NCBI GenBank assembly: GCA_963737635.1
Contig: CAVTTL010000001.1
Coordinates: forward strand, 1,056,001 to 1,120,000
Direction: 5' to 3'
Length of the DNA: 64,000 nucleotides
DNA from: an uncultured Methanoregulaceae archaeon
GTDB taxonomy: Archaea > Halobacteriota > Methanomicrobia > Methanomicrobiales > Methanospirillaceae
Shown here: positions 1,318 through 11,359 of the stretch, piece by piece
How positions within the stretch are numbered: the stretch's first letter is position 1
Layout of the letters: each line of letters opens with the position of its first letter
Position numbers and translations under genes: made by a program
Notes under the pieces: model-generated
The model's database searches: none
The model's input: only the letters and a program-made list of their open reading frames with translations
What the model was told of the DNA's origin: nothing

Positions 1318-2242
1318 ATGTCTCAGGATCGCCAGCTCCAGCTGGTCACCAGTGTGATGATATCGGCGGGATTCGAAGTATCCGAGAAGTTTACCCTTCG
1401 TCCGAGAAGTTTCGATCTCATCGCACGCAACAACGGGACACTGCTTGTGATCAAAGTCGTGACGCATATCGACTCGGTGAGCGAAGAAGCGGCGTTCGAT
1501 CTTGATGTGATCTCACATCATCTGGGTGGGGTGCCTCTTATTGTTGGTGAACGTGCCCGGGAGGCTGAGCTCGAACGGGGTGCGGTGTACGTTCGGTACG
1601 GCATCTATGCGATCAGCGTCTCGACTCTGTACGATTATTTTGTCGAGAAGATCCCCCCGCTCGTGTACGCGTCTCCCGGCGGTCTGTACGTGAATATCAA
1701 CGGTGACGCCCTGCGGGAGCTCCGTGAGGGGCAGCGTATGTCGCTTGGCGATCTGGGGCAGGTGCTTGGGGTGTCCCGGCGCACGATCAGCAAGTACGAG
1801 GGCGGGATGGGCACGACGCTTGAAGTTGCTATCCGGATCGAGGAGTATTTCAATACTGGTGTGGTCGAGTCCATCGATATTGTCCGCCGCGAACCTGCCG
1901 AATCCGGGCATGAGGAGCCAAAGAGACGACAGGGCCCGGGTATTCCTATCGAATTCTTTGAGCAGGCTCGGGATGCAGCTTCACACGCTCCGGGGCGCAC
2001 CGTTCCAGGCTCTCCTCACGTTCGACAAGCATACCATCCTTACGGGTTACGGCCCGGCGCAGAAAGTGGTCAAACGTGCCGCTCTTATCAGCAACCTCTC
2101 GAAGATCGCAAAGAAGCACGCGATGTGTATTATCACCGACTACCATCACGAAAAGAAGATCGGCCGGACGCTCGTGATCGGTGAGGAACGCCTCCACGAT
2201 ATCGCAGATGGTTTCGAACTCCTCGATATGTTGGGCGACTGA
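1318..2242 (+). CDS. Archaeal HTH transcriptional regulator (COG1395-like), split by a frameshift near 1963
   Basis: FDLIAR..LLVIKV N-terminal domain, Cro-type HTH (SLGDLGQVLGVSRRTISKYE); C-terminus continues in the frame of ORF 1703..2242. Confidence 0.85.
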
Positions 2243-2323
2243 TTTTTTTTAAGTCTAGTATACATTTTCAGATTTGCTGATCTCGCGTGTTCATCATCGC
2301 AGCAGTGCGATAAAAAAAGAAGA

Positions 2324-2929
2324 TTATGCTTTTTTCATGAATTTGGGGGAATTTGCAAGAAATGTTAACGCTTTCTCTTTGTGGACGTATGCGGGGTACC
2401 ATACGGTAAAGACGATAGCGATTACCATAAAGACCCATTTGAGATTGTCCAGAAATACAAGGCCGAGATCAGGTCGTAACACGAGAAAGCCGTCAATTGC
2501 AGCGCCGAGGGTAAAGGCAAGTGCCCATACCGCGGTTATGATATAATTTACCCGCATGAAGAGGGGGCTTTTCGCTCGTTCGGGATCAACCCCCTCTCGT
2601 GAATACTGGAGGGTGAAAGGGAAATGGAAAAGGATGGTAGCCCAGCAGACTACGGCGATTACCAGCATAGAAAGTGCCGCGAGGTATTTTGCGAGATAGT
2701 ACTGATGCAATCCAATGATCGGGATAAAGAACGCGACGAAAAACACGAGCGTTACCACGGCCAGGATATATCCTTTGAGCAGTTGCCGGTAACTGAGAAC
2801 AATAGTGAGCGCAATGGCGACAATAAAAGCAAGGGTCAGACTCATCAGGGGATTTCCAAGCGGAGCTTCAGCAATAAGTGCAAAGGCAATCCACGGAATG
2901 AACGCGGTAAAAAGCGATATCAGGTTCAT
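2324..2929 (-). CDS. Hypothetical integral membrane protein
   Basis: 201-aa ORF, about 6 hydrophobic segments, PFTLQYSRE motif. Confidence 0.75.
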   Translation of the reverse strand: MNLISLFTAFIPWIAFALIAEAPLGNPLMSLTLAFIVAIALTIVLSYRQLLKGYILAVVTLVFFVAFFIPIIGLHQYYLAKYLAALSMLVIAVVCWATILFHFPFTLQYSREGVDPERAKSPLFMRVNYIITAVWALAFTLGAAIDGFLVLRPDLGLVFLDNLKWVFMVIAIVFTVWYPAYVHKEKALTFLANSPKFMKKA

Positions 2930-3030
2930 GCCATACAGATAGAATTCGCGGATGGATAACTCTTTTGAAGTGTTTTTTCCCTTCTATTGGGAAATGAGCA
3001 GATTAAACGATTTTGGGAGAAAGTGTATAG

Positions 3031-3047
3031 CTAATCGTGACAGTGCC
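3031..3047 (-). repeat. Orphan IS6-type terminal inverted repeat remnant
   Basis: Reverse complement reads GGCACTGTCACGATTAG; IS6-family ends such as IS26 begin GGCACTGT; no partner end seen. Confidence 0.45.
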
Positions 3048-3125
3048 TGATTAATAGAGATGATAAAAATGGGATCGGTAGCATTCCTCAGTACGAGATC
3101 AGGATGAAGATCAAACCTTAATTAA

Positions 3126-3812
3126 GCCGGACGTTACTTCAACAACCCTGAAATAACGCCCATCCTTCATGAGTTAGTTACCCTATCCGCATTACCCGTC
3201 GCTGAAATGGAAACGGATTTCGCAATAGATTCCACAGGATTCAGGACAACAACTTTCAGCGAATACTGCGGGATGAAACACGGACAGAAGAAACAGCACA
3301 AATGGATCAAGGCGCATATGGCAACCGGTGTAAAGACCAACATCGTAACCGAAATTGTGATAACTGCCGATAATGTCCATGACACTAAACCATTCAGGAC
3401 ACTTCTGAACGGGACAGCAAAGAACTTCGATATCAAGGAGATATCAGCAGACAAAGCATACTCATCACGCGATAACCTCGCCGCAGTAAAAGAAATCGGC
3501 GCAAATGCTTACATCCCTTTCCTGAAAACTGCTACCGGTAAATCACACGGATCACCGCTTTGGAACAAGATGTACCACTACTTCAAAATGAACCAAGAAG
3601 AGTTCATGGAACACTACCATAAGAGGAGCAACATAGAAGCAACCAACGCGGCGATTAAAAGGAAGTTCGGAGAGACTTTGAAATCAAAGAACTCCGTTGC
3701 TCAGGTAAATGAATTGCTTGCGAAGATCATCGCTTACAATCTAACGGTAGTAATCCACGAGATGTACGAGAATGGAATCTCACCGGACTTCTTACAAATA
3801 AAAAGATCTTAG
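3126..3812 (+). pseudogene. 5'-truncated IS4/IS5-like DDE transposase
   Basis: Frame open from 3126 after in-frame TAA; catalytic motifs FAIDSTGF, SADKAYSS and YHKRSNIEATN; N-terminal region missing. Confidence 0.85.
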
Positions 3813-3818
3813 TAATTT

Positions 3819-4292
3819 TTACTTGTGGTTATATTTCGATAAATTTTCTTTTAATTCCGGATTTCCCCGAATTATAAGATTGTAAAGTGTTGTCCAATAT
3901 TCTAGTTTCACTTCACTTCGACCAAACATATTCATTTTAACAAATTGTGATCCTTTTAAGGAAACATTCGCCATAATTTCTTCGTAAGTTATCGGATCAA
4001 TGTGTATATTTTCTGTAATTCGTTCAATATCTGCAAAATAATCCGATTTTTGCTTTGTCCACTCTCCTGCACCCTCCAACTTCGCAGTGCTCGTAACTTT
4101 AAAAATAGATTTAATAGCCCCATGAGGTTTTGTGTAATAAAATAAAATTAAATCGTTTGGCTCTACGGTTTTACGGACACTCCATCCAGAATGTTTTTTA
4201 GCACTATCCAACTCCTTACGACGATCCTCATGTGCACCGCGTTTATCAATACCAACCGACATGATCCATATCTTTGACATATTTCGCTCCAT
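3819..4292 (-). CDS. EVE (PUA-like) domain protein
   Basis: KIWIMSV..WSVRKTVEPNDLILFYYTKPHGAIKSIFKVTS..DPITYEEI pattern typical of EVE domains; AT-rich. Confidence 0.7.
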   Translation of the reverse strand: MERNMSKIWIMSVGIDKRGAHEDRRKELDSAKKHSGWSVRKTVEPNDLILFYYTKPHGAIKSIFKVTSTAKLEGAGEWTKQKSDYFADIERITENIHIDPITYEEIMANVSLKGSQFVKMNMFGRSEVKLEYWTTLYNLIIRGNPELKENLSKYNHK

Positions 4293-4337
4293 GTGAAATA
4301 TATCGCAATCGTTTTAATAATTGTTCGGATTTTGATC

Positions 4338-4397
4338 TCTGCACCTAAAGTCCGGTGTCTGCACCTAAAGTAGGGTCAAAAAGTGACTTTGGGTGCA
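4338..4397. repeat. Subterminal repeats of element A
   Basis: TCTGCACCTAAAGT at 4338-4351 and 4358-4371 (20-bp period); inverted ACTTTGGGTGCA at 4386-4397 (11/12 match). Confidence 0.85.
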
Positions 4398-4404
4398 AAG
4401 CCCC

Positions 4405-4412
4405 CCTCTAGA
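4405..4412. repeat. 8-bp target site duplication, left copy (CCTCTAGA)
   Basis: Identical to 9643-9650 and directly flanks the inverted repeat. Confidence 0.85.
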
Positions 4413-4473
4413 GGTTCTGGTGCGTCTGCGGTTGATCCACCGCGCTCGCGGTTGGTGGTGCGTGGCGGTTGGT
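4413..4473 (+). repeat. Left terminal inverted repeat and internal TGGTGCGT-N2/3-CGGTTG repeats
   Basis: Motif at 4418-4434 and 4456-4471, with an extra GCGGTTG at 4448-4454. Confidence 0.8.
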
Positions 4474-4486
4474 AGGAACGCAGAGA

Positions 4487-5608
4487 TTAGAAACCATCAA
4501 AGAATTGACTTTTTCTAAATCCGATGACACATCCATCTGGATATGTTCCATAGCGGCTGGTTCGATTGGATACTATTATCCGATTGCTATCTTCTAAAAT
4601 CTTTAAACTTCTTGACCACATTTGAGGGAATGGGGTATGCTCAATACAAAATTCTTTTAATTGGGTTGTTGTTAGGGATCTTCCTATCAAAGATTTGTAA
4701 ATAAATTCTGCCTCATCCTCAAATTTTGAATCCTCACAATAAGATACCAAGAAACTTTGACCGGCATCTGTTATATCGGAAAAACTAAAAGTTCCTCTCG
4801 GATCAACTTTGAGCATTGCTCTTTTCATATACGACAATCCATCAATGTGATTTGAGGCAAAAAATAGATGATAGGAGACATTATTCATTTTGTCAACCAT
4901 TTCAAAGGATTTGACATATTTTGAAGCTGTTTTGAGTTGCATATGGTATAATTCAATTATTTTTGATAGGCGTTCATTGGGGTTTCTAAGTGGTCTAATG
5001 TTTCGCCATTCCGATGTTCCAAACAATCCATCAAATGTTTCCTCTCTTGGATCGTCCTTAGCTTGGATAAAACGATTAATTCCATTATAAGCGAAATTAA
5101 TGAATACCTCACAGCTTCGGAATGCGAGAATTCTTTCGATTATGTAAAATGGCAATCCACTATATCCAAAAGGATCAATAAACGCAAATGTAGGAGCTGA
5201 GCTTTTACTCTCTTTATCGAGAGCCGCCAACAAAGCTTTCATTGCAGTTTCAAAATCCGCATGATATACATCCACCTTAACATTTTTTGGCAAATCTGGG
5301 AATCGCTTTTTTATTGTCCTTTCTAATATTTCCGCCCTTGTTGCGTCTTGTTCAATAAAAATAAAAACAAATTCTGTAGATCCATTGCATAATTCATGCG
5401 AATGCCCTAAAAGACATCTCAGTGCAACTAATGGTGAGCCATCCTCCCCATTTTCATATTTACCGGGACCGGCAAAACCATCGATATAAACAAGTCTTTT
5501 GTTATGAGCTTTTGATAAAATAGGATACCACGCTTTCAGGTATTCTTCTAAAATTCTATGTTTTGCCTCAGTATGTGGTTCTTTTATCCAAACGGCGGAT
5601 TCCGGCAT
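4487..5608 (-). CDS. tcmP: Three-Cys-motif partner (TcmP-family) SAM-binding methyltransferase-like protein
   Basis: PHTEAKHRILEEYLKAW, YIDGFAGPGKY, FAFIDPFGY, YHLFFASNHIDGLSYMKRAM signatures; start placed at ATG 5608. Confidence 0.85.
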   Translation of the reverse strand: MPESAVWIKEPHTEAKHRILEEYLKAWYPILSKAHNKRLVYIDGFAGPGKYENGEDGSPLVALRCLLGHSHELCNGSTEFVFIFIEQDATRAEILERTIKKRFPDLPKNVKVDVYHADFETAMKALLAALDKESKSSAPTFAFIDPFGYSGLPFYIIERILAFRSCEVFINFAYNGINRFIQAKDDPREETFDGLFGTSEWRNIRPLRNPNERLSKIIELYHMQLKTASKYVKSFEMVDKMNNVSYHLFFASNHIDGLSYMKRAMLKVDPRGTFSFSDITDAGQSFLVSYCEDSKFEDEAEFIYKSLIGRSLTTTQLKEFCIEHTPFPQMWSRSLKILEDSNRIIVSNRTSRYGTYPDGCVIGFRKSQFFDGF

Positions 5609-5624
5609 TATTATTTTATAAATT

Positions 5625-6413
5625 TCAATAGGATAATAAGTCTTTCTTGATGTAATGCGACTTTCCATATTTTTTTAACTTTGCCGTAACTTTAATCCTA
5701 AAATCTCGCCAATCAATGGTTTTTGCTTGGGCGTTATAATTTAATTTTCCCACTTTGTAAAAATCTACAAAATCTTTTGTTAAGTCGATCAATTTGAGAG
5801 TTTGCTCAGGTATCCAAACGGGTTCCAGTGATACATATGTCGGGATACCCATATCATGCGCTTTTTTCAAAGCCTCAATCCTTTCATTTGTTGGTGCTGC
5901 TCCACCCTCAATTTCCTTTCTGTATTCTTCATCTGTAAAAACTAACGTAGCACCATATTCACTTAATTCGGGGCTTTTCGACAGTAAATCAAAATCCCTT
6001 TCTGATCGTTTTCCGCCTTTGGTCAATATTGAAACTTTTAATTTATGTTGGTGTAATATCTGGATCGCTTGCCTACTGAGTTGTTGCTTAACATCCAGTG
6101 GTTGATATGGGTCTGTGGTGAAAGATAACAAAATCGTACGTTTTTCGCCAATGCTCTCTAAATAAGCAGCATCATCATAGAATTTATTAATAACTCCCGT
6201 TCTGGGAGTTGGTTTGTAAAAATTCTCTTTTGTCATATACAGGGTTGCAGGGGCGTAACAATACGAGCAACGGTGACTGCACCCCCGGTAAAGGTTTGCT
6301 GCTAATTCACAATATTCACGCGCTTTCCCTCGCGGTTCGTATATTATTGATGTTTTTAGCCGGTTTTCTTCTTTCGAAACCAACTGGCAGCTTTGCATTT
6401 TTATTCTCACCAA
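5625..6413 (-). CDS. Radical SAM protein (spore photoproduct lyase-like)
   Basis: NLYRGCSHRCSYCYAP (CxxxCxxC), SFTTDPYQP, ILTKG, YVSLEP; exact start uncertain (6398-6413). Confidence 0.9.
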   Translation of the reverse strand: MVRIKMQSCQLVSKEENRLKTSIIYEPRGKAREYCELAANLYRGCSHRCSYCYAPATLYMTKENFYKPTPRTGVINKFYDDAAYLESIGEKRTILLSFTTDPYQPLDVKQQLSRQAIQILHQHKLKVSILTKGGKRSERDFDLLSKSPELSEYGATLVFTDEEYRKEIEGGAAPTNERIEALKKAHDMGIPTYVSLEPVWIPEQTLKLIDLTKDFVDFYKVGKLNYNAQAKTIDWRDFRIKVTAKLKKYGKSHYIKKDLLSY

Positions 6414-6479
6414 TTAAAAAATCTATATGGATATGATACTATATTGATCTTCCGGTGCATGGGGTGAAAGTGTAAAAAG

Positions 6480-6704
6480 TCACTCGGTTTTAAGAGTGTT
6501 GTTTTTCGTTTCTTTTTCCTTTCGTGTTGTCCAAGCTTTCTTTGCGATTTCACTTCTTCTTTGTTGTTTTGTTTCTATCCATAACTTGATTGCTTCATGC
6601 AATGCGATTGAAAGGTTTCCCCGTTTCATTCCCAACTCTTTAGCAACCTCCGTTCTGAATTCATTTTCAAGGTCATCTGGAAGAATAACGTCAATTCTGC
6701 CCAT
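6480..6704 (-). CDS. Ribbon-helix-helix (CopG-like) regulator
   Basis: MGRIDVILPDDLENEFR..KRGNLSIALHEAIKLWI; basic tail RRSEIAKKAWTTRK. Confidence 0.8.
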   Translation of the reverse strand: MGRIDVILPDDLENEFRTEVAKELGMKRGNLSIALHEAIKLWIETKQQRRSEIAKKAWTTRKEKETKNNTLKTE

Positions 6705-6736
6705 AGGTTTTCACAAATAGTATAATGTCTCTCTCC

Positions 6737-6806
6737 GTTTATACACTTTTCCCCTTAACCACAATGGATAAATACTTTAACCACATATGTGGTTATGTGT
6801 ATAAAC
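6737..6806. promoter_or_regulatory. Divergent promoter/operator between RHH and transposase genes
   Basis: Perfect 18-bp palindrome TAACCACATATGTGGTTA (6778-6795), half-site TTAACCACA (6755-6763), outer inverted pair GTTTATACAC / GTGTATAAAC. Confidence 0.7.
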
Positions 6807-6830
6807 CCGTCTGTGTGTTTAACCAATGAG

Positions 6831-8024
6831 ATGATGAAAATGATACGGCAACTTACCAACCCACGAGAATTAAAAGCACTGGCAATGCTCAGCGAACCCG
6901 ATACCGTACTCCAGACTGGCAAAGACGAGTGGGATGTTAGATCGCAGTCGAAAAACGCGTATTATCAGGTTGCCCGAAGTTACAAAGATCGGAATGCTCG
7001 TATGCGAGGACAGGCAACATGGACATGTTCATGTCCTGATTTCCAGACTCGCAACGTCATATGCAAACATCAGCACGCCGTGATGCTTTCCTTAAAGATT
7101 GCCGGTGATGTTCAAGAACAGAGTGCTCCAGCCGCCATTGCTGAGGCAGAACCAAAGATTACCTGCCCTTCATGCAAGAGCGAAAATATTAAGAAATGGG
7201 GAATCCGGAAGACCCGATATGGCACTACTCAGCGGTACGCGTGCCACGAATGCAATCATACTTTTGTCGTTGACAAGGGGTTTTGCCGGATGAAACATTC
7301 CCCTGAATCAATCACACTTACCCTGGATCTCTACTTCAAAGGATTGTCGGATCGGAAGATTGTGGATCACCTTAAACAATTCCACAATGTTACCGTCGTT
7401 CACACTACAGTTATTCGATGGATTCACAAATACCTGAAACTCCTGTCAACCTACGCTGAGAAGTATAAAGTCGATGCCGGGAATATCTGGCATTGCGATG
7501 AAACAACCGTTTTTATCAAGAAAGAAGGTGAAAAGAAGCACTATCAGTGGATATGGAATTTGATGGACGCAAAGACCCGCTATCTTCTGGCATGTCAGGT
7601 TACTGAGCACCGGTTCGTAAAGGATGCCCGAAAGCCCCTGAGCAAGGCAAAAGCGATGGCAAAGAATATACCGGATGCGATTGTGACGGATGGCCTACAA
7701 GCATACCGAGATGCAATTAAGGCTGAGTACTATGGGCTAGGGCGCATCCAGAACCCACACATCAGACTGAAGGACTTTGAAACCAAGCCGAACAACAACA
7801 TTCTCGAACGGTTAAACGGCACGTTCCGAGAGCGCACAAAGGTAATGCGGAGCCTTGATAGCGCAATCGGTGCCGGAGAGTTTGCCGCTGGTATGCAGAC
7901 GTATTACAACTATATCCGACCTCACATGGGGATCGACGGAATGACGCCGGCACAGATGGCAAATATCCCGATTAATCTGATGGGGAACCGATGGGAAACT
8001 ATGATTGGGCTGGCGGTAAAATAG
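6831..8024 (+). CDS. IS6/IS240-like DDE transposase with N-terminal SWIM finger and Zn ribbon
   Basis: SWIM WTCSCPDF..CKH; CPSC..QRYACHEC; HTH; DDE triad WHCDET / IVTDG / NNILERLNGTFRER; frame intact. Confidence 0.92.
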   Translation: MMKMIRQLTNPRELKALAMLSEPDTVLQTGKDEWDVRSQSKNAYYQVARSYKDRNARMRGQATWTCSCPDFQTRNVICKHQHAVMLSLKIAGDVQEQSAPAAIAEAEPKITCPSCKSENIKKWGIRKTRYGTTQRYACHECNHTFVVDKGFCRMKHSPESITLTLDLYFKGLSDRKIVDHLKQFHNVTVVHTTVIRWIHKYLKLLSTYAEKYKVDAGNIWHCDETTVFIKKEGEKKHYQWIWNLMDAKTRYLLACQVTEHRFVKDARKPLSKAKAMAKNIPDAIVTDGLQAYRDAIKAEYYGLGRIQNPHIRLKDFETKPNNNILERLNGTFRERTKVMRSLDSAIGAGEFAAGMQTYYNYIRPHMGIDGMTPAQMANIPINLMGNRWETMIGLAVK

Positions 8025-8031
8025 AATATTA

Positions 8032-8517
8032 TCAATCTGTTTTTTGTTGGGATTTGAGTTTGTCCTTCACATATGCAAGTTCAATTAAATCGAGCATATC
8101 TCCCCGATCAGAGCTCAAAATAGGGAACGTTGAATATACTAACTGAATGAAGCGGTTCCAATCATATTGCTTTGTACTGTTAATCACAAAATCCAACATA
8201 TTTTTTTCGTCTATCGGTATATTAATTGGATAGTTTTCGTTGGACAGTTTAATCAGTGTTTTTTTATGACCAAAAGAATTTTGAGTGTTTTCGATTTCGA
8301 AAATGGATGGGTTATCTTTTGCACAATTATAAATATCCCATACAAACGGCCCAAAATTATTAAATTCCCATTGGATACCAGTGATTTGTTTTTTATTTTT
8401 TAGGGCAAATTTCCAATCGGCAAGATACACAAGTTTTGTTAGACGCGCATTGGACAATTCAGATTTGTGGGGGTAATTTTTAAGAAGATAAACCAATACA
8501 TCAACCAATTTGCTCAT
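8032..8517 (-). CDS. Panacea/SocA (DUF4065) antitoxin-domain protein
   Basis: RLTKLVYLADWKF..ITGIQWEFNNFGPFVWDIY..FIQLVYST signature. Confidence 0.85.
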   Translation of the reverse strand: MSKLVDVLVYLLKNYPHKSELSNARLTKLVYLADWKFALKNKKQITGIQWEFNNFGPFVWDIYNCAKDNPSIFEIENTQNSFGHKKTLIKLSNENYPINIPIDEKNMLDFVINSTKQYDWNRFIQLVYSTFPILSSDRGDMLDLIELAYVKDKLKSQQKTD

Positions 8518-9536
8518 TATACATCCTGTTCTAAGTTCTCTTCTTCAGATTCCCAATTCTCACCTAAATATGGATTAGGGAGCTCTAACCTTAAAATTAT
8601 TTCCTTACATATATTAATCTGTTCGGAGTCCCTGAATAAGCCTTCTAATTCTCTTTTTGTGAAACGGGTGTTTTTCGTAGACTCTACAATAAATATTGCC
8701 TTTGGGTGGTGGTTTTCTCCTATCCTATAACCATAAATTAGTGGGGGTTTCATTGAAAATAACTCAGCCACTTCACGAGGAATATGCTCTAAAGTCTCTA
8801 ATGCAGTATAATATTCCTCTAAGGCTCGAATGGGATCTGGGTAAATTTTAAAGTATTCACCATCATTCCAAGCATGGCTTATTGCTCCCTGATCTGGGGG
8901 GTACTGATGTCTACGTACTGCATTATAGATAGGATTCGCTGAATATCGAGCGATAGGAAAGAATCCCGCTTCATCAAATACGTATAAGCTTATACGATCT
9001 GTTTTGTGAGTTGCGCCACCAAAATCGAGAATGCAATCTCCAATGTACCTATTTAGAAATTCAACAATTTCTTTGATGGTGTCCTGATGGAGTTCATCTT
9101 CTCCAGTAAGTCCATCAACCTGATCTTTTAAGTCTTGGTTTTCCTTTATTACATCCTTAAGTCTTTTTTTGTGCTTGTATGACAACCATACAATTGCAAG
9201 AGATAATACGATTAGAATAATGCCGCCAATTGCAATTTCAATATTAAAAACCGATGAAGTTGCCTTTGTAATGTCTGCCTTTGAGATATCTCTTATTAAG
9301 TCATAAAATATCGAGGAGAATACCGAGAAATAGATTCCGGTAATCGACGAAACTATTAGGACGGGTATTTCAGAATAATCCGTGAGCCATTCTTCGATTA
9401 TTTTGATGTATTTCCAAACCATTTTTGAGGTTGTCCATATTTTTAAATTATATCGCAAATCTGAGTAGCTGTTGGGAATATAAAAAGAAAATGTATTGAA
9501 ATCGGTTTCATATTGTATTAAAACACAATCGGTCAT
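8517..9536 (-). CDS. Two-TM membrane protein with coiled coil and C-terminal GAF-like domain
   Basis: Two hydrophobic helices, then DRISLYVFD..FPIARYS..YPPDQGAISHAW; stop overlaps start of the Panacea gene; true start may be 9422. Confidence 0.65.
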   Translation of the reverse strand: MTDCVLIQYETDFNTFSFYIPNSYSDLRYNLKIWTTSKMVWKYIKIIEEWLTDYSEIPVLIVSSITGIYFSVFSSIFYDLIRDISKADITKATSSVFNIEIAIGGIILIVLSLAIVWLSYKHKKRLKDVIKENQDLKDQVDGLTGEDELHQDTIKEIVEFLNRYIGDCILDFGGATHKTDRISLYVFDEAGFFPIARYSANPIYNAVRRHQYPPDQGAISHAWNDGEYFKIYPDPIRALEEYYTALETLEHIPREVAELFSMKPPLIYGYRIGENHHPKAIFIVESTKNTRFTKRELEGLFRDSEQINICKEIILRLELPNPYLGENWESEEENLEQDV

Positions 9537-9580
9537 TCATAGCACCATCAAAAAAGTGCATTGTTGCCTTGATCGCGCGA

Positions 9581-9642
9581 AACCAACCGCGATGCACCAG
9601 TACAGGTGAAATGCACCAAACAACCGACAACGCACCAGCACC
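9581..9642 (-). repeat. Right terminal inverted repeat and internal repeats of element B
   Basis: rc reads GGTGCTGGTGCGTTGTCGGTTG..TGGTGCAT..TGGTGCATCGCGGTTGG. Confidence 0.8.
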
Positions 9643-9650
9643 CCTCTAGA
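9643..9650. repeat. 8-bp target site duplication, right copy (CCTCTAGA)
   Basis: Identical to 4405-4412. Confidence 0.85.
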
Positions 9651-9664
9651 GAACCATTATATAG
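9650..9664 (+). promoter_or_regulatory. Putative BRE/TATA of the thermosome gene
   Basis: AGAACCA-TTATATAG ending 40 nt before ATG 9704; GGTGA SD-like motif before the start. Confidence 0.6.
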
Positions 9665-9703
9665 AACCACAAACCAATTTTAGTGCTAAAAGTGGTGAAT
9701 TTT

Positions 9704-11359
9704 ATGTCGCAACAACTTGGAGGACAACCAATTCTTATTCTTAAGGAAGGTACCAACCGTACCCGAGGCCGTGACGCCCAGGGTATGAACATCACCGCTG
9801 CAATGGCTGTTGCCAGTGCAGTAAGGACCACGCTCGGCCCCAAGGGTATGGACAAGATGCTTGTCGATACCATCGGCGATGTCGTGATTACGAATGATGG
9901 TGTCACCATCCTCAAGGAAATGGACATCGAGCACCCGGCCGCAAAGATGATGGTCGAGGTCGCAAAGACCCAGGATGACGAGGTCGGCGACGGAACTACC
10001 ACTGCAGTCGTTATCGGTGGGGAACTCTTAAAGAAGGCCGAGGCACTCCTTGAACAGGACGTACACCCGACGGTTATCGCCCACGGCTACCGTATGGCGG
10101 CTGAGAAGGCGCAGGCGCTGCTCAAAGACATCGCGTTCGATGTCAAGTCCACCGACAAGGCACTCTTAAAGAACATCGCCGGCACCGCAATGACCGGCAA
10201 GGGCGCTGAGGCAAGCAAGGACAAGCTCTGTGACCTCGTGGTCAGGGCCGTCACCATGGTGACTGATGCTGACGGGACTGTCGATATCGACAACATCAAG
10301 GTCGAGAAGAAGACCGGCGGCAGCATCGAGGACTCCGAGATTGTTGAAGGAGTTCTCATCGACAAGGAGCGCGTGCACCCGTCAATGCCAAAGAAGGTCA
10401 CCAACGCAAAGATCCTTCTTCTCAACGCAGCGGTCGAGTTCAAGAAGACCGAAGTCGACGCTGAGATCAATATAACCCACCCCGAGCAGTTACAGGCATT
10501 CCTCGACGAAGAGGAGCGCATGGTCAAGAATATTGTCGAAAAGATTGTCAAAAGCGGTGCAAACGTCCTCTTCTGCCAGAAGGGTATCGACGACATCGCA
10601 CAGCACTACCTTGCAAAGGCCGGTATCTTCGCCGTCCGCCGTGTCAAGAAGAGCGACATGGAGAAGCTTGCCCGGGCAACCGGTGGCAGCCTCGTTTCAA
10701 GCATTGATGCGATCGGCAAGGAAGAACTCGGTCATGCCGGTGTTATCGAAGAGCGCAAGGTCTCCGGAGAGGAGATGACCTTTGTCGAGCAGTGCAAGAA
10801 CCCGAAATCGGTCTCCATCATTGTCAAGGGCGGCACTGAGCATGTTGTCGACGAGCTCGAGCGCGCCATCCACGACGCACTCCGCGTTGTCGGCGTCGTT
10901 GTTGAGGACAAGAAGGTCGTCGCCGGCGGCGGTGCACCCGAGACCGAGCTCTCGCTCCGGCTCCGCGAGTACGCGGCAACGGTCGGTGGCAAGGAACAGC
11001 TCGCCATCGAGGCATTTGCAGTCGCGCTCGAGATCATCCCGCGAACCCTTGCAGAGAACGCAGGTCTCGATCCCATTGACATGCTGGTAGAGATCCGCTC
11101 AACCCATGAGAAGGGCAAGAAGAACTACGGTCTCAATGTCTTCGAAGGAAAAGCAGTCGATATGAAGGCAGCCGGTGTTGTTGAGCCCCTCCGTGTCAAG
11201 ACCCAGGCAATCTCCTCAGCTGCAGAAGCCGCGATCATGATCCTCCGCATTGACGACGTGATCGCCTCTTCCAAGTCCCCCTCTCCGGCACCCGGTGCCG
11301 GTGGCATGCCGCCTGGAATGGGTGGCATGGGCGGAATGGGTGGCATGGGCGACTACTAA
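9704..11359 (+). CDS. thsA: Thermosome (group II chaperonin) subunit
   Basis: [19 protein letters not shown]-terminal GGM repeats. Confidence 0.97.

Follow-up and report, generated by a model that had tools for sequence, protein, structure and literature searches.

That the transcription machinery guides the choice of target is textbook knowledge for eukaryotic retroelements. Tf1 of Schizosaccharomyces pombe inserts in RNA polymerase II promoters, those of stress-response genes being favoured, and is guided by the host DNA-binding protein Sap1. Tn7 has its attachment site, attTn7, downstream of glmS, the coding sequence of which is read by a separate selector, TnsD. The accessible parts of the sources describe TFIIIB (TBP/Brf1/Bdp1) as the tether of yeast Ty3 at the start sites of RNA polymerase III (10.1101/2021.07.27.453949, PMC6673722) and place Tf1 and Tf2 in promoter regions (PMC4600332). 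For the IS6 family of insertion sequences (IS), the available portion of a review gives a length of 789-880 bp and one open reading frame (ORF) encoding a transposase of 213-254 aa (clade h: 340-350 aa), with one member carrying a passenger gene, and names no promoter targeting (PMC7986276). Here, we analyzed a 64,000-nucleotide (nt) window of the genome of an uncultured Methanoregulaceae archaeon (contig CAVTTL010000001.1, positions 1,056,001 to 1,120,000), in which an IS6-like cargo transposon, called element B, lies directly upstream of the promoter of a thermosome subunit gene. The B family appears to home to promoters: it very probably integrates site-specifically at a fixed distance from the TATA box of chaperone or heat-shock promoters, with newcomers stacking on the promoter side, and the stretch 9621-9704 would then be the junction between the tip of B and an intact core promoter.

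Coordinates are positions in the window unless prefixed with C1, which denotes the contig of the source genome (G000); the features are collected in Table 1. Metagenome contigs of the DNA runs X2, X3, X4 and X5 were aligned to the window, and in six metatranscriptome runs 8-10% of the sampled words were present. With element B in single square brackets, the junctions read ...GGGTGCAAAGCC-CC-CCTCTAGA-[GGTTCTGGTGCGT ... ACGCACCAGCACC]-CCTCTAGA-GAACC-ATTATATAG. The duplication around B is perfect over its 8 bp, and the inverted ends are of the GGTTCTG type; the arms of the terminal inverted repeat (4410-4434 and 9621-9645) are 80% complementary, and a sub-terminal inverted repeat is present as well. 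The duplicated 8-mer CCTCTAGA has four matches on the two strands of the window, against 1.13 expected. The right tip of B stands 13 nt ahead of the thermosome TATA box: the right 8-mer ends, 5 nt follow and the 9-mer ATTATATAG begins, which equals the distance of 6 nt to TTATATAG given in an earlier note on this DNA. Five passenger ORFs are enclosed by a single pair of inverted ends and one target duplication, as in a unit transposon. The transposase combines an N-terminal SWIM zinc finger, a Zn ribbon of the IS1/IS1595 type and a DDE domain of the IS6/IS240 type. It was matched above cut-off by the Pfam model DDE_Tnp_IS240 (E 6.2e-14), and its top NCBIfam match was the IS6 equivalog, with 114.8 bits against a cut-off of 125 bits, followed by the IS1 model; no related solved structure was found at E up to 0.01. 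B shares with IS6 elements the 8-bp duplication and the short terminal inverted repeats, but not the compact, transposase-only layout of ~0.8 kb, as it has 5230 bp and five passengers.

The native state of the insertion site can be read in related genomes. In congeners, the upstream host gene, termed gene U, runs directly into the thermosome promoter, with its stop ~15 nt ahead of the TATA box; the 7.4-kb block 2250-9646 therefore represents DNA inserted into a native spacer of ~15 nt. Orthologous thermosome promoters were gathered with the 5' region of the gene as the query, yielding 37 other Methanoregulaceae genomes with a readable promoter (set 2), and the thermosome TATA is conserved in all of them. 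Twenty-eight genomes have the empty layout of gene U stop, short T-run, ~13 nt and thermosome TATA, as exemplified by G015 (CTGA-TTTTTTT-AGAGAACT-TTTATATAG). A GGTTCTG-type end is found exactly 13 nt ahead of the TATA 9-mer in eight of the 37, and the remaining genome, G128, has a longer unrelated spacer at this promoter. The earlier note had suggested inspecting the thermosome upstream regions of related genomes, and every occupied one repeats the geometry of the window. The occupants include a non-autonomous element of ~0.8 kb in G093, with the perfect duplication TTTTTAGA and the same geometry, and inserts of 2.4-3.1 kb without a B-type transposase in G008 and G035.

The fixed offset was also found at the relatives of B. 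We assembled 24 loci (set 1), namely the window and 23 loci picked solely by similarity to the B transposase from a species-representative genome collection; 21 of the 23 come from Methanoregulaceae metagenome-assembled genomes and two do not. Both sets were selected without regard to flanking sequence. All 17 junctions of set 1 with a readable promoter side consist of tip, 8-mer, 5 nt and TATA-like 9-mer, so that the distance from duplication to TATA, which the earlier note had proposed to map in homologues, is 5 nt in each of them. At the exact offset, an 8-mer with at most one mismatch from TTTATATA is present at 12 of the 24 loci (background 3.2e-4 per position and strand; binomial 1e-32), and one with at most two mismatches at 17 (binomial 1e-31); these binomial figures are too favourable, since loci that share a site are partly dependent on one another. 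Ten elements, two of them in G000, have GGTTCTG-type ends, perfect 8-bp duplications and lengths of 2.6-11 kb, and an eleventh was found in G000. The loci are concentrated at few genes, as 19 of the 24 adjoin one of five chaperone-type genes: the thermosome gene, a thermosome paralog and the genes for Hsp20, an ArsR-type regulator and a CDC48-like protein (Table 1). The genes were identified by their Pfam matches, and the closest solved relative of the ArsR-type regulator is 2p4w_A (E 1e-13), which we take to be the heat-shock regulator Phr of Pyrococcus.

Such a pattern could in principle arise by chance and survivorship, if insertions were random and, the genome being compact, survived only in the ~15-nt gap between the gene U stop and the thermosome TATA box with its B recognition element (BRE); two elements would then merely give the impression of a stack. 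The native spacer is indeed tiny in 28 of the 37 genomes, so any tolerated insertion there falls within a few bases, and one relative, at C1:425105-429100, did insert within a coding frame. However, survivorship cannot yield a base-exact offset at five promoters with different surroundings (17 junctions, and all eight occupied sites of the survey), nor can it explain why 19 of 24 loci lie at chaperone genes among the about two thousand genes of each genome, and we consider it very improbable.

All sites share a single feature, a TATA-like box that lies 5 nt from the duplication; they vary in their 8-mers, 5-nt spacers and downstream sequences, and the boxes of the regulator and hsp20 promoters are degenerate. 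The earlier note had named a preference for CTAG as a finding that would speak against promoter targeting, and the window 8-mer does contain CTAG, while many 8-mers at the thermosome site are T-rich, as could be expected if a DNA word in the duplicated 8-mer, CTAG or an AT-rich one, set the target instead of the promoter. Nevertheless, among at least 25 different 8-mers CTAG occurs only in that of the window, which excludes the CTAG preference. No common word is found at the other four promoters, where the 8-mers are ACTAAGGG, GTTTGTAG, CCCATTCC, ACTGCGAG and others, and the T-richness at the thermosome site is that of the T-run of gene U. We give practically no credence to a target word of either kind.

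The insertions are independent events. At least 11 different 8-mers are found at the thermosome site, and they match the native spacer of each species; for instance, the 8-mer of L030, TTTTTCAA, is the sequence of the empty site of G009. In 11 elements both copies of the duplication are identical. The elements lie in both orientations: at the thermosome 2 promoter, L033 and L035 have their left end toward the promoter and L042 its right end, and at the thermosome site L032 and L036 are inverted with respect to the window. The transposase tree places L036 (thermosome) as the sister of L037 (hsp20) plus L039 (regulator), with support 99/96, indicating that close relatives use different members of the promoter set. 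Further occupants were seen in the metagenomes. One contig carries a different element that ends ...CTTATCAGAACC-TTTT before window position 9647, and its 8-mer is therefore the native TTTTTAGA; another contig carries yet another element, ...GCATCAGAACC-TTTCCAAG-GAATC followed by the TATA box, where TTTCCAAG is the native 8-mer of G134, the reference genome of which is empty at this site. These observations bear on the explanation that there was a single ancient insertion at the thermosome gene, which was passed on by vertical descent or moved between genomes by recombination in the conserved flanks. The closest relatives of the B transposase (77-81% identity) are mostly found at the thermosome site, and the highly conserved thermosome gene could support homologous exchange. 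On the other hand, the 8-mers vary among genomes, are identical within each and equal the native spacers of empty relatives; both orientations, sizes of 0.8-11 kb and varied cargo are found, and 28 of the 37 genomes are empty. Moreover, the transposases at the thermosome site fall in two separate places of the tree, and the loose ends in the metagenomes reveal more occupants with the native 8-mers TTTCCAAG and TTTTTAGA. Descent from one insertion is accordingly extremely unlikely.

Stacking was observed as well. In G060, the order is element Y, CCAATAGA and TATA, and in G120 (L041) it is element Y, CCAATAGA, a B-like element, CCAATAGA and TATA. Tandem junctions of tip, 8-mer and tip were read in L028, L036, L038, L040, L041 and L042. 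A 7637-nt contig of run X3 equals window 2244-9651 with one difference and then, right after the right 8-mer of B, enters another end, GGTTCTGATAGG...; it is a third layer in a near-identical strain. The stacking is explained if each new arrival inserts on the promoter side of the older occupant, and the order in the window (end of element A, the neighbouring relic described below, CC, CCTCTAGA, B, CCTCTAGA, GAACC, TATA) fits this rule. The B family bears out two further points of the earlier note, that the core promoter is left intact and that accessory elements pile up in tandem.

Several observations weigh against the conclusion that the B family targets chaperone promoters at a fixed TATA distance. 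The thermosome promoter itself is a putative one, assigned from conservation and geometry. The box found at the offset in L038 and L048 matches TATA poorly (3-4 mismatches), and in L034 and L044 a TATA-like box at the same offset precedes a gene that could not be assigned; L045, L046 and L050 are fragments whose layout could not be resolved. The element at C1:425105-429100, whose transposase is 68% identical to that of B, has a perfect duplication, GACTAACG, and interrupts a frame of 452 codons, with no TATA beside it. At C1:276830-279598 lies a third B-family element of G000 (2769 bp, transposase 76.5% identical, perfect duplication CGTGAATA), which has the TATA-like TTTATATT exactly 5 nt from the duplication, but no gene was found behind it: there is no Rfam match (E up to 0.01) and no ORF of at least 60 aa starting within 220 nt. 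This box may mark the promoter of an unannotated small gene or RNA. Finally, other GGTTCTG-ended subfamilies in G000 have no TATA at the offset.

Table 1. Features of the window, and loci and genomes grouped by the promoter at which B-type ends were found
Feature	Position or members	Strand	Remarks
Thermosome subunit gene, intact	9704..11359	+	Cpn60_TCP1, E 1e-195; ATG at 9704
Likely ribosome-binding site GGTGA of the thermosome gene	9694-9698		
5-nt spacer GAACC (expected BRE position) and TATA 9-mer ATTATATAG	9651..9664	+	9-mer at 9656-9664
Element B, IS6-like cargo transposon, 5230 bp	4413..9642	+	Left tip GGTTCTGGTGCGT; right tip (reverse complement) GGTGCTGGTGCGT
Left copy of 8-bp target duplication CCTCTAGA	4405..4412		
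Right copy of 8-bp target duplication CCTCTAGA	9643..9650		
TcmP-like protein	4487-5668	-	B cargo; TIGR04474 E 5e-66; PADLOC candidate PDC-M30A E 1e-62
Radical SAM protein	5625-6413	-	B cargo; paired with TcmP-like protein
Small ORF	6480..6707	-	Weak ribbon-helix-helix match, E 0.0075, below cut-off
Element B transposase, 394 aa	6840..8024	+	Start chosen by homologues
SocA/Panacea-domain protein	8032-8517	-	B cargo
339-aa protein without family match	8517-9536	-	B cargo
Element A, 5'-truncated IS5-like IS	3137..4402	+	DDE_Tnp_1 remnant at 3207-3812
EVE-domain ORF inside element A	3819-4292	-	E 1.7e-6
Element A right-end repeats	4337-4402		Finish in GTGCAAAGCC
Relocated host segment	2250..3136	.	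Holds ORF 2324-2929 (-), 201 aa, no family match
Upstream host gene U, 3' part, HTH_3 protein	1703..2242	+	Stop TGA, then T8 (2242-2250)
Thermosome 1 (spacer after gene U)	8 loci: window, L028, L029, L030, L031, L032, L036, L041		
Thermosome 2 paralog promoter	3 loci: L033, L035, L042		
Hsp20	2 loci: L037, L038		
ArsR-type, Phr-like regulator	4 loci: L039, L047, L048, L049		
CDC48-like gene	2 loci: L040, L043		L043 by Pfam; L040 by eye only, 47-aa ORF
Occupied genomes of set 2	G008, G035, G060, G093, G120, G121, G173, G175		Last base of end differs in G173

Some further features of the locus and of the source genome were recorded. Among the cargo of B, the SocA/Panacea-domain protein and the 339-aa protein are possibly a toxin-antitoxin module. 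One contig of run X5 (depth 2.5, shorter side 41 nt) joins window position 9640 to 4403, that is, the right end of B to its left end over the 8-mer; this junction points to either two tandem copies or a circular form of B, and does not by itself decide whether B uses the replicative cointegrate mechanism of the IS6 family. G000 contains inverted pairs of GGTTCTG-type ends ~90 bp apart (C1 71136/71228, 1748113/1748204, 2140097/2140186, 2230198/2230290 and 2371688/2371780), which look like miniature non-autonomous elements of related subfamilies, and its region 2.34-2.42 Mb is dense in GGTTCTG-type ends. Two overlapping frames, 1225-2184 and 1703-2242, make up gene U. The contigs of runs X3, X4 and X5 have one base fewer at 1965, hence the split is probably an indel or an assembly error of this genome and not a broken gene. 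Two more thermosome paralogs, C1:229973-231545 and 1988950-1990517, each match in two pieces in different frames, which may be due to frameshifts or assembly errors.

The earlier note had described two transposons stacked at the thermosome BRE/TATA and had proposed that both were guided there by the promoter. The data strongly favour this for B, given its 8-bp duplication, the tip 13 nt from TATA, the 17 readable junctions of its family and the eight occupied sites among 37 genomes. They do not support it for element A, a truncated relic fused to relocated host DNA, whose family has no TATA at six other ends. The window remnant of A was matched by Pfam DDE_Tnp_1 (E 3e-27), and the full transposase of the family is an IS5-like protein of 411 aa that scores 136.3 bits with the NCBIfam equivalog IS5_2, against a cut-off of 140 bits. 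Two full 1.53-kb copies, C1:980922-982457 and C1:172402-173934, match A with 76-78% identity, from position 3137 on only. This alignment starts at the equivalent of codon ~180, so the first ~180 codons are absent from A, the SWIM domain included. A carries an EVE-domain insert of ~530 bp, which the two full copies lack; it follows the transposase stop and precedes the 64-bp repeat-rich right end. The end of A is most likely at 4402, as five other A-family right ends stop at ...GTGCAAAGCC; A would then stand two C's before the left 8-mer of B and not abut it as the note had it. A complete copy of the family, L085, has inverted ends GGCTTTGCACGTAA... and a 9-bp duplication, ACCGCGAGC, whereas the copy in the window has the right end only. 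In both full copies of G000, a divergent ORF for a 49-aa CxxC...CxxC zinc ribbon lies upstream of the transposase (L081 1410-1559, which is C1:980909-981058, and its equivalent in the copy at 172402). The two copies cease to be similar at the stop codon of this ORF, and no left inverted end was detected there.

It could still be that A and B were both guided by the promoter, with a shared SWIM domain steering two unrelated DDE transposases. The N-terminal ~100 residues with the SWIM motif are homologous between the A-family and B transposases (28% identity over 100 residues, E 2e-10), while the rest is unrelated and the catalytic parts belong to different families. In the window, the end of A would lie 15 nt ahead of the TATA 9-mer, and in run X2 an A-like right end is followed by 7 nt and then by GGTTCTGATAAG..., a GGTTCTG-type tip, which makes a second pairing of an A end with a B-type end. 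Against this, no TATA-like box stands at or close to that distance from any of five other right ends of the A family or from the one left end that could be identified, and the family is rare, being found in three of 61 genomes of the genus (E 1e-60 or better). In addition, the copy in the window has lost its 5' part and is joined to displaced host DNA, which makes it impossible to demonstrate that it arrived by transposing itself, and no convincing duplication surrounds the block that contains it, TCTAG being 5 of the 9 nt expected from L085. Guidance of both families is therefore unlikely; the shared SWIM domain and the pairing in run X2 may serve as leads for a phenomenon of two families, but they are not evidence for it. 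As a separate observation, A-like right-end repeats (window 4340-4402) are present in other contexts in runs X2 and X5.

The DNA upstream of A has been displaced from elsewhere in the host genome. The ORF 2324-2929 has its counterpart in G015 and G009 ~7.5 kb downstream of the thermosome gene, between the equivalents of window 16753 and 16800, and at this old site G000 has a clean gap of only ~45 bp. In G004, a different insert of 3.4 kb occupies that downstream intergenic spot, which is thus a second variable spot. A target duplication for the block 2250-4404 was sought and rejected: the left side reads T8-AAGTCTAG, after which TATAC begins, the right side reads GCC followed by CCCCTCTAG, and the common part is only TCTAG, i.e. 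5 nt of the expected 9. On reading 2250-3137, no B-type ends were found at the left edge, and the block is accordingly not visibly a remnant of an older B-type element.

The sequence of events that explains the data best is very probably the following. The B transposase makes an 8-bp duplication with its promoter-side edge 5 bp upstream of TATA, which places the tip 13 bp away. The distance is measured from TATA, so that a newcomer duplicates the same 8-mer again between the prior occupant and the promoter, and each insertion leaves 13 native bases, the TATA box and the gene intact. Element A and the relocated host gene represent an older occupant of this hot spot, and B was inserted recently. 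As the targets are chaperone or heat-shock promoters and not promoters in general, an extra determinant would limit the choice; alternatively, targeting could be general, with only promoters that lack upstream regulatory sites tolerating an insertion.

What serves as the ruler can be proposed only tentatively. One candidate is the bent promoter bound by TBP and TFB, read by the N-terminal SWIM/Zn module, which is possible but less likely than not; another, slightly less likely still, is direct read-out of the TATA/BRE DNA by the transposase. We favour the former over the latter, because the tolerance of the sites for degenerate boxes resembles that of TBP itself. More specifically, it is possible, if rather unlikely in all its parts, that the SWIM/Zn-ribbon region docks on the TBP/TFB platform, perhaps with one of three TBP paralogs or with a Phr-type repressor holding the platform at heat-shock promoters, that this docking brings the active site to one DNA turn upstream of TATA, and that SWIM is a portable promoter-homing domain that was also acquired by an IS5-type transposase. 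If so, B would be a counterpart, among prokaryotic DNA transposons, of the tethering of Ty3 by TFIIIB. G000 encodes a single TFB (C1:721598-722608) and three TBPs (C1:54526-55113, 1737320-1737910 and 2106397-2106981). In haloarchaea, dedicated TFBs are described, in the accessible part of the source, as reading heat-shock promoters through BRE/TATA (PMC2396416); by analogy, a paralog-specific platform is conceivable.

A second conserved feature was found in part of the target promoters. Those of hsp20, the regulator and the cdc48-like genes (L037, L038, L039, L040, L043, L047, L048 and L049) contain AC-TAAC-N5-GT(T/A/G)A 8-10 nt past TATA. This motif resembles the palindromic Phr operator and may well serve as the operator in a heat-shock regulon of the Phr type in Methanoregulaceae. 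Phr is reported, in the available text of the source, to bind a palindrome, and Phr sites precede HSP20 and VAT1 (PMC10746257). By eye, the motif was not found in the two thermosome promoters, and a Phr-type repressor was for this reason rejected as the common ruler. The operator was also rejected as the measuring point, since the distance from duplication to TAAC is 22-24 nt, whereas clear TATA boxes are always 5 nt away.

We found no description of an archaeal or bacterial DNA transposon that measures its insertion from TATA in the literature, supplementary tables not being covered, and a 2026 survey of archaeal IS does not contain the words 'promoter', 'intergenic', 'insertion site' or 'SWIM'. 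Should the mechanism be confirmed, it would follow that homing to initiation complexes arose in the archaeal lineage, with an IS6-type enzyme as its basis. The accumulation of defence and toxin-antitoxin cargo in tandem islands before the thermosome gene in many methanogens would then have an explanation, and a natural tool would be at hand for inserting DNA at a predictable, harmless spot by a strong, conserved, heat-inducible promoter. For annotation, the findings carry a warning: what looks like a large 'island' between conserved genes can be a stack of single insertions, all of them at one base position.

Among the described systems, the IS6/IS26 type is the closest in its enzyme. As far as the accessible part of the review shows, B resembles it in its DDE domain, which is probably of the IS6/IS240 type (Pfam E 6e-14), and agrees with it in the 8-bp duplication and the short inverted ends starting with GG, and with clade h of Clostridia in having a long transposase with an N-terminal zinc finger (PMC7986276). 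B differs from IS6 elements in its length of 5.2 kb (2.6-11 kb in its relatives), its five passengers, its 394-aa transposase with SWIM and Zn ribbon, and its fixed distance from TATA.

In its choice of target, B is like Ty3, as that element is portrayed in the portions of the sources available. Both integrate within a base or two of a fixed position, which for Ty3 is set by the initiation machinery and for B by this machinery or the promoter, at a safe site in a compact genome, and archaeal TBP and TFB are homologous to TBP and the TFIIB-like Brf1. The fixed distance from an initiation-factor site that characterizes Ty3 was found for B at 17 junctions and at eight of eight occupied thermosome sites. 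The two differ in that Ty3 is a eukaryotic long terminal repeat retroelement with a retroviral-type integrase, whose contact with TFIIIB has been shown structurally, whereas B is an archaeal DNA transposon with an IS6-type DDE enzyme, for which a contact with TBP/TFB is only inferred; also, Ty3 inserts at the start site and B upstream of TATA. Tf1 shares with B the preference for promoters, which are stress-induced ones, but is a retrotransposon with broader insertion windows. Tn7 resembles B in that the neighbourhood of a highly conserved, essential gene provides a harmless landing site in many species, where cargo elements accumulate; it differs from the B-type elements in its selector, as these have no conserved extra selector gene and use five different promoters.

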